64,000 bases of DNA from Octopus vulgaris (taxonomy: Eukaryota), in contig OX597823.1 in assembly GCA_951406725.2 (NCBI GenBank), forward strand, positions 114,328,001 to 114,392,000. Direction: 5' to 3'. The notes under the pieces were generated by a model. It saw only the letters and a list, made by a program, of their open reading frames with translations. It was not told the DNA's origin and made no database searches. The position numbers and the translations under genes are program-made. Shown in pieces: positions 15,567-17,440 of this stretch (the stretch's first letter is position 1; each line of letters opens with the position of its first letter).

Positions 15567-16239
15567 TATAATTTCAACAATTGAGGGTATGTATTATTAA
15601 TCAATTTCACCAAGTATTCAGTATGTAATTTAATGCCTTCTATTACATTTTATAAAGGGCTTAGTAAAATAAATTACTTTGCCACATACTGAACTCATTA
15701 GAAATAGCATAGCCAAAAAAAATTTTTTAGCCATTTCTAATACTTAAACTTAAAATTTCTCTCAGATAGTGTTTACTCAAAATAACCCACGAAGGTATGG
15801 GGGTAAAAACATTAAAAAATCACAAGTGCAAAGATTATTTGAGAACGTACGTTTCTAGATCAGCCAAATACAATTCGACATTTCTTTCGTCAGCTCAAAA
15901 TTTCTTAAATCGGATTTGTAAACACTGAAAGTAGGAGCATACCCTTTTGGCGACTTTTCACCTCCGAAGATCCGTTCAAACTAACAGTGCCAACAAATTC
16001 AAAATATGCAAGCGAAGAATTTCTGCCCTCCCCTTCCATCCACGTGGGCTAAACTAGCAAACACCATGTTTTATCGGTGAAAACCGAAGCATTAAACAGA
16101 GAGAAATGAATTATAATTTCAACAATTGAGGGTAAAATTAATTAATTATTAATCAATTTCACCAAGTATTCAGTATGTAAAGGGACCATTTAAGGCGAAT
16201 TCAAAATATTACATTTTATAAAGGGTTTAGTAAAATAAA
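15567..16239 (-). mobile_element. HHR-bearing element with terminal direct repeat (~545-bp period)
   Basis: 15567-15673 recurs with indels at 16112-16239. TA-flanked. Related to the reverse complement of 16709-17440. Confidence 0.8.
15838..15899 (-). ncRNA. Type I hammerhead ribozyme
   Basis: Minus strand reads TTTGAG-CTGACGA-aAGA..GTCGAAT/ATTTGGC..TCTa-GAAA-CGTACG-TT-CTCAAA. 6-bp stem I, palindromic stem III ACGTACGT, GUU triplet. Confidence 0.75.
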
Positions 16240-16350
16240 ATAAAATAAAATATATATATATATATATATATATATATATATATATATATATATATATATA
16301 TATATATATATATATATATATATATATATATATGTGTGTGTGTGTGTGTG

Positions 16351-16660
16351 TGGAGGCGCAATGGCCTAGTGGTTAGGGCAGCGGACTCGCGGTCGTAGGA
16401 TCGCGGTTTCCATTCCCAGATTGGGCGTTGTGAGTGTTTATTGAGCGAAAACATCTAAAACTCCACAAGGCTCCGGCAGGGGATGGTGGCGATCCCTGCT
16501 GTACTCTTTCTCCACAACTTTCTCTCACTCTTTCTTCTGTTGCCCTACCAGCTTAGCCAGCGGGGTGGCGTCATTTGAAGGCTAAAACAATGCGAAGCGC
16601 ATTGTGACCAGCGATGTGTAACAACATCTGATAGCCTGGTAGGTCACGGTGATCACAGTG
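16351..16660 (+). mobile_element. Full-length tRNA-derived SINE family A
   Basis: Head GGAGGCGCAATGGCCTAGTGGTTAGGGCAGCGG..., tail GGTCACGGTGATCACAGTGA. Three copies in the window. Confidence 0.9.
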
Positions 16661-16708
16661 ATATATATATATATATATATATATATATATATACACATAT
16701 ATATATAT

Positions 16709-17440
16709 AACCCTTAATTACTTAGTATTACTTAAACCTTCCTTGAATGGGGCTTTTACATGCCGAAATCTACTTGCTGAAATTAATGATTATTCCAAAT
16801 TAATTAATTTCACCCTATATTATTATTGATAATTATATTTCATCCCAGTAAATAACCGCAACATCTTATTCTGGCAGCACGCTGGTGGGAGGAGGATGGT
16901 GACACATACTTTCATTCACCCTTTGAATTTGGTGGTACTGGTAATGGCTTACGCTCGCTCTGATACCATGAGTTGAGGTGATGTCTTCTAGTGCCTCCAA
17001 ATTTAATACACATTTATTAATGATTGAGGCGCAATTATTTATAATTGAAGAGTCCTACGCTGAGAAGAAAAATAGTCGGGTAAGACATAATTATTTAATT
17101 TTTATGCTTTCCTATGACTTAATTTCGAAACGTACTTCCGTAGGTGACTTAATATAGAATGATTGTCGTCATTTCTTTCTCTTTTGCCTGCGTTGTTTGC
17201 CTTTTAAGTGCTGTGGTTTTACTAGGATCTCCCTTTTAAGTAGAAAGAATAGCCATAACTCTTTGACTGCTATTTCTAAATTCAGTGTGTGGTGAGGCAA
17301 ATCGTTGCTAAACCCTTAATTACTTAGTATTACTTAAACCTTCCTTGAATGGGGCTTTTACATGCCGAAATCTACTTGGTGAAATTAATGATTATTCCAA
17401 ATTAATTAATTTCACCCTATATTATTATTGATAATTATAT
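16709..17440 (+). mobile_element. HHR-bearing element with 130-bp terminal direct repeat (602-bp period)
   Basis: 16709-16838 equals 17311-17440 with one mismatch seen. Embedded in (TA)n. Confidence 0.85.
17054..17144 (+). ncRNA. Degenerate type I hammerhead ribozyme with long stem II
   Basis: CCTACG-CTGAGAA-GAAA..AGTC..GACT..TTTC-GAAA-CGTACT-TC-CGTAGG. Perfect 6-bp stem I, but the core and stem III palindrome carry substitutions. Confidence 0.6.

Follow-up and report, generated by a model that had tools for sequence, protein, structure and literature searches.

The region under study lies within a 64-kb window (the whole stretch of DNA analysed here) of AT-rich, animal-type sequence rich in (TA)n microsatellites. 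At its centre are two elements of ~700 bases, each consisting of one unit plus a ~130-nt terminal repeat and each set in (TA)n: E1 (15567..16242), whose ribozyme reads on the minus strand, and E2 (16709..17440) on the plus strand. E2 comprises a 602-nt unit and a 130-nt terminal repeat with a (TA)n tract on either side; E1 has a unit of ~545-566 nt plus its terminal repeat, and its 5′ flank is a (TA)n/(TG)n microsatellite (16251..16344). Between them lies an unrelated SINE-like repeat (16345..16652, plus strand; other copies at 3423-3580 and 12992-13263), which we take to be an octopus-like SINE. The 3′ end of E1 abuts the right arm of a further element, E3 (14609..15568), built head-to-head from 321-nt inverted arms that are 99% complementary, with compact hammerheads at 14872-14919 (minus) and 15418-15465 (plus). 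Only the left arm is extended, by ~35 nt, and the structure is of PLE type.

Two homologous elements of more than one unit

The E2 repeats (5′, 16709..16838; 3′, 17311..17440) recur with a period of 602 and differ by a single mismatch over 130 nt (129/130 identical). Those of E1 (5′, 16112..16242; 3′, 15567..15676) are 79% alike with gaps, and their spacing varies by block, from 545 at the outer end only to 552 and 566 further in, so that the true E1 unit is nearer 566 than 545 nt. In either element the 5′ repeat corresponds to a partial upstream unit, which in E1 is pseudo-LTR-like. A preliminary description of this DNA had proposed two related LTR mimics of about 1.2 monomers, with terminal direct repeats of 105-130 bp and opposite orientations; anatomy and coordinates are borne out, with the exception of the E1 period, for which it had given 545.

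Aligned in ribozyme sense, the two units are identical at 343 of 497 columns (69%), with 153 gap columns. Tested part by part, the repeat and the stretches on either side of the ribozyme were each matched in likeness by none of 500 shuffles; for the hammerhead sequence taken by itself the likeness was not significant (109/500 shuffles as good). E1 and E2 are homologous non-coding elements. The window holds no third copy. Both keep the unit-to-unit junction AATTATA(A/T)TTCAT. Contigs from four public runs (X1, X5, X6 and X11) were aligned to E2. These are too short to span two units, and they cross the junction in X5 and X6.

A single type I hammerhead in each unit

A type I hammerhead descriptor that tolerates one core mismatch placed one hammerhead in each element, outside the short repeats, as the preliminary description had it in locating the ribozyme in the unique middle. 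The E1 hammerhead (15838..15899, minus strand) combines stem I TTTGAG/CTCAAA, the core CTGACGA..GAAA and a palindromic stem III, ACGTACGT, with a predicted cut between 15844 and 15843. Core and palindrome are kept, the cleavage site is GUU, and an A.A mismatch occupies 10.1-11.1 at the base of stem II. Its E2 counterpart (17054..17144, plus strand) has a long stem II, carries A at core position 8 (17065) and T at 16.2 (17136), and is predicted to be cut after 17138. The descriptor matched eight times in the window, against a mean of 0.6 and a maximum of 3 in 20 shuffled windows, and in 5/500 (E1) and 4/500 (E2) shuffles of the elements. Rfam returned no match at the gathering score, and at E ≤ 5 its 27 matches included no hammerhead; short-window folding of the two ribozymes gave weak z-scores of -1.4 and -0.5.

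The aligned contigs read G at both 17065 and 17136, in at least 99.7% of depth and in four of four runs (19 and 36 contigs over the two sites in X1, 28 and 34 in X6). The family motif is therefore conserved, with an intact core, a GUC site and the palindrome ACGUACGU, and the E2 copy has decayed from it, with G8 and G16.2 broken. Among the near-fixed differences listed (at least 98% in X1 and X6), five of six—17013, 17065, 17136, 17224 and 17284—restore a core letter or a base pair. Between E1 and E2, four of the six stem I pairs differ, all of them changed on both sides, and two are identical. The earlier idea of compensatory evolution of a functional ribozyme therefore stands as far as the compensation in stem I and the conservation of a hammerhead in the family are concerned; the complete difference reported for stem I does not, and both copies at this locus look decayed, E2 in its core and E1 by the A.A mismatch.

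In a predicted co-fold, two E1 ribozymes form a hammerhead dimer whose stem III joins the two molecules, as has been described for hammerheads of PLEs and amphibians (PMC4209133, PMC7229834). Contigs of 424 nt (X5) and 256 nt (X11) run across the ribozyme; the RNA origin of both runs is a guess, and these contigs therefore bear nothing on transcription, cleavage or circles.

A rod-like fold and a shared 3′ domain

Folded alone, each unit is predicted to form a long interrupted rod with the ribozyme at its tip. In E1 this rod spans 15747..16107 (minus strand; arms ~16107-16007 and ~15832-15747; z = -5.1), in E2 16842..17228 (plus strand; arms ~16842-16917 and ~17157-17228; z = -7.7), none of 40 shuffles scoring as low in either case. 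The antisense rods were weaker (z = -2.7 and -2.4 for E1 and E2). Independently computed folds of E1 and E2, with 176 and 196 pairs, have 21 exact pairs in common, 11 of which changed on both sides, as compared to 0-4 in 25 shuffles; 87 of the 176 E1 pairs fall within six columns of an E2 pair (shuffles, 2-27%). Conservation and covariation of the predicted rod are thus well supported. Population variants lend the fold mixed support: among 39 of the 40 variants listed (of 80), with 16769 left out as lying outside the folded unit, 21 sites are paired, of which 10 remain compatible with the partner letter of the reference and 11 do not, a count in which partner changes may be hidden.

Downstream of the rod, both elements carry a 3′ domain that includes the motif TGCTATTTCTA, a helix arm and a hairpin that we call site A. 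It occupies 15658..15709 in E1 (minus strand; arm 15682-15694, hairpin 15658-15683) and 17268..17336 in E2 (plus strand; arm 17281-17292, hairpin 17291-17314), where it is the most abundant part. The site-A hairpins show compensatory changes between the elements. A second hairpin, site B, lies at 17378-17416 in E2, near the end of the 3′ repeat and followed by (TA)n (z = -4.9, 0/200 shuffles as low), and is intact at 16131-16163 in the 5′ repeat of E1 (z = -5.1). Each of the two hairpins ends in (A/G)CCC and AT-rich sequence. Of the motifs earlier described as terminal, TAGAAATAGCA is indeed shared, yet outside the repeats: it occurs once per element, just beyond them (15699-15709 and 17268-17278).

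A pattern for the shared 3′ motif had no match in metagenome, viral and prokaryote genome collections, and the E1/E2 motifs are absent from one supplement file each of PMC8557442 and PMC13282606. A hammerhead-start pattern returned 117 metagenome loci, which we ascribe to chance, as none had an nhmmer match or the stem III motif; by BLAST, none of the 10 longest matched E1 or E2.

No coding frame and few LTR-type features

The longest open reading frame in E1 and E2 encodes 62 aa, Pfam had no match in nine of nine frames tested, and comparison of E1 and E2 translations yielded none that is conserved (best E = 0.065). On these grounds we rejected a coding remnant. TG..CA ends are absent in both orientations, and by inspection no TGG-type primer-binding site follows the first repeat in either orientation, in keeping with what had been claimed. 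Lack of a polypurine tract had been claimed as well, and here E1 departs from the claim: on the plus strand, its right repeat is preceded by the purine-rich run AAACAGAGAGAAATGAA; the equivalent in E2 is weak. The E1 run is an arm of the rod, and the fold lies on the opposite strand.

These features bear on whether the elements are TRIMs, that is, non-autonomous LTR retrotransposons with true, fixed repeats and an incidental hammerhead. A size below 1 kb with repeats of 100-250 bp does match the TRIM definition (PMC6934838). The near-identity of the repeats and the coincidence of the boundaries would fit as well; bivalve TRIMs, too, have no clear PBS, and one E1 repeat has a purine run beside it. 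Against this stand the missing TG..CA ends and PBS, and a purine run that is not kept in E2 and belongs to a rod arm on the opposite strand. Insertion into (TA)n with an alternative end inside the repeat (see below) is, moreover, not integrase-like. We consider this reading very unlikely.

Plant LTR retrozymes resemble E1 and E2 in being small and non-coding with terminal direct repeats (PMC7229834, PMC7761336, PMC6934838). The plant elements, according to the same sources, have type III hammerheads in both LTRs, a PBS, a PPT and 4-bp target-site duplications; in E1 and E2 the hammerhead is of type I, single and outside the repeats, no PBS is seen, and a clear purine run stands beside a repeat of E1 only. 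Both elements lie in (TA)n, where a target-site duplication cannot be recognised.

Alternative 3′ ends and a 3′-heavy family

The 3′ ends of E1 and E2 both continue as TA sequence. In the aligned contigs, loose ends at 17317-17336 run into (TA)n-like sequence in X1, X6 and X11 (among the 24 of 288 loose ends listed), and joints lead from 17280-17320 to 17432/17433 in X1, X5 and X6. Depth across 17322 falls from 1.56 to 0.46 million in X1 and from 1.20 to 0.47 million in X6—summed depth not being a copy number—and the gap is not closed by depth placed on the 5′ repeat. Given the loose ends, joints and drop in depth, site A is the end of many relatives, ~110 nt short of site B, where E2 ends. 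The pair of ends resembles the two start sites by which the PLE tail is defined (PMC11167929); the site-A end may instead belong to shorter sister families.

Depth is also strongly skewed along E2, from 1.56 million at 17297-17322 to 4,900 at 16855-16880 in X1. Four opposite-strand joints, of one contig each, were seen on E2, and its depth is 3′-heavy; these may reflect inverted 5′ copies and 5′ truncation as in PLEs, though the depth also tracks shared blocks. With such a skew, the 3′ part is common to more abundant elements, as would fit internally deleted ('gutted') copies of an autonomous PLE that arise as by-products and form no self-propagating small family. We consider such an origin quite improbable, because two subfamilies only 69% identical keep unit layout, junction and a covarying rod, the coding remnant is missing, and contigs cover 29 of 29 bins of E2 in both DNA-type runs, under two organism labels. 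Words from E2 occur in 20 of the 24 runs listed, from 10 studies and under four organism labels.

At the other end, the 5′ boundaries of E1 and E2 lie at most ~15 aligned columns apart, in or just after the site-A hairpin. By our own estimate from these two cases, the chance of such a coincidence is roughly 5% if boundaries were uniform over the unit, and with n = 2 the evidence leans towards a preferred stop over a random one.

Hammerhead elements and retroelement fragments nearby

Besides E1 and E2, three hammerhead families in the window—at 2185-2615, at 10013-10547 with 32508-32705, and E3 at 14609-15568—consist of head-to-head inverted arms in (TA)n. The first is a near-perfect palindromic element with one type I hammerhead per arm (2229-2311, minus; 2489-2571, plus), characterised by a long stem II and the palindromic stem III ACATATGT. 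The second is represented by two copies whose inversion points differ, one lying inside the ribozyme; an extension of ~64-68 nt on one side is common to both. Inversion combined with a tail on one side only has been described as a hallmark of PLEs (PMC8557442, PMC3846280).

At 28309-29566, the window contains pieces of a reading frame from a non-LTR retrotransposon, presumably R4/Dong-like, in which zf-RVT is weakly matched (E = 0.008). This raises the option that the helper of E1 and E2 was a microsatellite-targeting non-LTR element of R4/Dong type and not a PLE. The matching fragment (28309-28692) would speak for it, as would the activity of Dong-R4 in Octopus vulgaris (PMC13282606). However, no sequence in common with E1 or E2 was seen within the window, and partial tandems, tails and type I hammerheads with a palindromic stem III are PLE traits (PMC4209133, PMC8557442). 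We hold an R4/Dong-type helper to be very unlikely.

Comparison with retrozymes and PLEs

The preliminary description spoke of a retrozyme-like family, and much agrees with this. Like the metazoan non-LTR retrozymes (PMC7229834; 10.64898/2026.07.22.740005), E1 and E2 are non-coding, carry a type I hammerhead, have a GC content below 50%, and lack LTRs, a PBS and a clear PPT; their unit is highly self-paired, and the weak palindromic stem III is as in the amphibian forms. Unit length falls within the 51-972 bp range of Li et al. (10.64898/2026.07.22.740005), though it exceeds the 150-450 bp of the 2020 retrozyme paper (PMC7229834). Dispersed monomer derivatives have been described for non-LTR retrozymes, with PLEs as proposed helper (PMC7229834; 10.64898/2026.07.22.740005), and animal retrozymes in general are argued to be PLE-dependent (10.64898/2026.07.22.740005). 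Unlike those tandems of at least two units, however, E1 and E2 are 1.2-mers with one hammerhead each, and their locus holds no tandem of two or more units with complete hammerheads. They are retrozyme-like in their working, yet as copies fall outside the tandem definition of non-LTR retrozymes. Another difference is that (TA)n targeting and conservation of a 3′ domain can be made out here; according to PMC7761336, retrozymes have no conserved motif that indicates their helper.

The likeness to PLEs is closer in several respects. As in Chlamydomonas MRC1 and endonuclease-bearing PLEs, a partial tandem mimics LTRs and targets are AT-rich or (TA)n (PMC8557442, PMC3846280); on account of its partial tandem, MRC1 was first filed as an LTR element (PMC8557442). 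A hammerhead upstream of the 3′ end is likewise PLE-like, as two alternative 3′ ends of one family would be (PMC11167929, PMC4209133). In canonical PLEs, by contrast, the hammerhead usually lies within the pseudo-LTR and tails measure 30-40 bp (PMC8557442), as opposed to a hammerhead outside the repeat and an extension of ~110 nt in E1/E2. Chlamys and Naiad elements are without canonical hammerheads, and (TA)n-targeting Naiads are on record for Octopus. PLEs, some of whose families were active recently, account for 6.83% of the O. vulgaris genome (PMC13282606). The kind of element is already published (Cervera 2020; Li 2026; MRC1), and E1/E2 represent a further family. Judged by titles and the opening lines of abstracts, the papers listed on cephalopod and octopus hammerheads and on non-autonomous Penelope elements do not describe it; it may already be catalogued in repeat libraries (Zenodo O. 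vulgaris, Repbase/Dfam).

E1 and E2 combine the absence of coding capacity, a partial tandem, an AT-rich or (TA)n target and a type I hammerhead with a short palindromic stem III upstream of the 3′ end. The best reading files them as non-autonomous PLE-type elements. We put the probability that they belong to a PLE-dependent class, copied from a template of more than unit length, at roughly 0.7. Evidence for it includes the (TA)n 3′ ends together with the alternative 3′ end at 17317-17336 (four of four runs; loose ends as listed); the inverted arms of the three other hammerhead families in the window, two of which have one-sided extensions; and the conserved hammerhead, covarying rod, kept unit junction and missing coding frame. 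Against it count the absence, in the sequence examined, of a tandem donor and of an autonomous PLE with the same 3′ domain, the position of the hammerhead outside the repeat and an extension that much exceeds the canonical tail (PMC8557442), the near-coincident 5′ boundaries, which random stalling does not predict, and the 11 of 21 paired variant sites (among those listed) that break an E2 pair.

One template probably read twice

At eight of eight listed sites where at least about half of the X1 depth reads another letter, the two E2 repeats carry the same letter. Sharing of letters that vary in the family fits a single template copied twice. Outside two replaced blocks, the E1 repeats differ by one substitution. 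The blocks (15585-15641) match consecutive pieces of the E3 tail, of 11 and 8 nt, and for this reason probably reflect a mixed-haplotype consensus—possibly with the E1 insertion heterozygous—or a templated junction, and not ordinary divergence. Repeats thus resemble each other inside one element but have diverged from one element to the next and across the family, a pattern that would fit a circular or homogenised tandem template. The agreement of the E2 repeats upholds the proposal that the terminal redundancy stems from reverse transcription beyond one round.

Repeat length is not set by ribozyme cleavage. From the cut site to the 3′ end measures 302 nt in E2 and 277 nt in E1, and the repeat found is 130 nt. 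That the cut does not set the boundary would also be expected if the same family used a PLE helper and no circle at all, the template being linear RNA transcribed from a tandem or partial-tandem donor and left uncut, and the hammerhead a PLE part carried over and put to another role. This we regard as possible, if tentative. It draws strength from an Anolis PLE whose ribozyme mutants still insert in vitro and whose main substrate is unprocessed RNA (PMC11167929). On the other hand, copying 1.2-mers end to end would let the repeats drift, and those of E2 are near-identical while the family varies; a linear template would hence need a homogenised tandem donor or a template jump. As to circle or uncut linear RNA as the template of the PLE-dependent family, we see about even odds.

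Within the preferred, PLE-dependent reading, E1 and E2 are likely dead-end copies of a non-autonomous family that would be copied by a PLE reverse transcriptase-endonuclease; the identity of the helper, the donor, cleavage, the circle and the reason for the stop are all points that we infer. A donor with at least two hammerheads would be transcribed. Through the palindromic stem III, two hammerheads are predicted to cut as a dimer and release a monomer of ~570-600 nt, and a host ligase would join its ends to give a rod-shaped circle; alternatively, the tandem RNA would serve as template uncut. The PLE protein would bind the conserved 3′ domain, nick (TA)n and start cDNA synthesis inside the RNA, at a hairpin-ACCC-AT-rich site: site B (17440 in E2) or site A, ~110 nt earlier. 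Synthesis would then run past its own start, continue for another ~130-145 nt and stop close to the site-A hairpin, leaving a pseudo-LTR too short to reach a second hammerhead. The inserted 1.2-mers contain one hammerhead each, that of E2 broken at two conserved positions and that of E1 mismatched. With a single, imperfect hammerhead per 1.2-mer, E1 and E2 alone would give rise to no unit-length circle.

Reports on related systems bear on these steps. The Anolis PLE initiates reverse transcription inside its RNA, on the 3′ side of the hammerhead, at two sites by which the tail is defined, and its targets are AT-rich (PMC11167929). The same study names uncut RNA as the main template and found no reads ending at the cut site, which weakens the circle step (PMC11167929). 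Among Xenopus retrozyme dimers, one of nine cleaved in vitro (10.64898/2026.07.22.740005).

Near-coincident 5′ boundaries would also follow if the 1.2-mer itself propagated, as a PLE-dependent 'LTR mimic' with redundancy programmed between duplicated hairpin-ACCC signals and a single hammerhead acting only in trans. Site A would then set the 5′ stop and site B the start, the hammerhead would cut by pairing two transcripts via the ACGUACGU palindrome, and the rod would hold the cut halves together. We deem this unlikely. If true, it would amount to a third retrozyme architecture and a minimal substrate showing how PLE pseudo-LTRs arise and stay identical. The field has yet to settle how the pseudo-LTRs of PLEs are formed, what role their hammerhead plays and which enzyme mobilises animal retrozymes. 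For such work, a ~600-nt non-coding family with a covarying rod, a conserved 3′ domain and two defined 3′ ends would make a convenient substrate: its 3′ motif could identify the helper, and the spread of 5′ boundaries would distinguish a programmed stop from a rolling template. With elements of this kind already published, the gain is incremental unless that boundary turns out to be fixed.

Other repeats in the window

Two further regions of the window stood out. At 45935-47743, units of ~650 nt are arranged in tandem, and one block of 507 nt is shared by the copies at 100% identity, which reflects either a recent duplication or an assembly artefact. Minus-strand frames at 4866-6103 include a zinc-knuckle-like stretch (CHRCLESGHIKKNC) and are probably a decayed retroelement ORF1.
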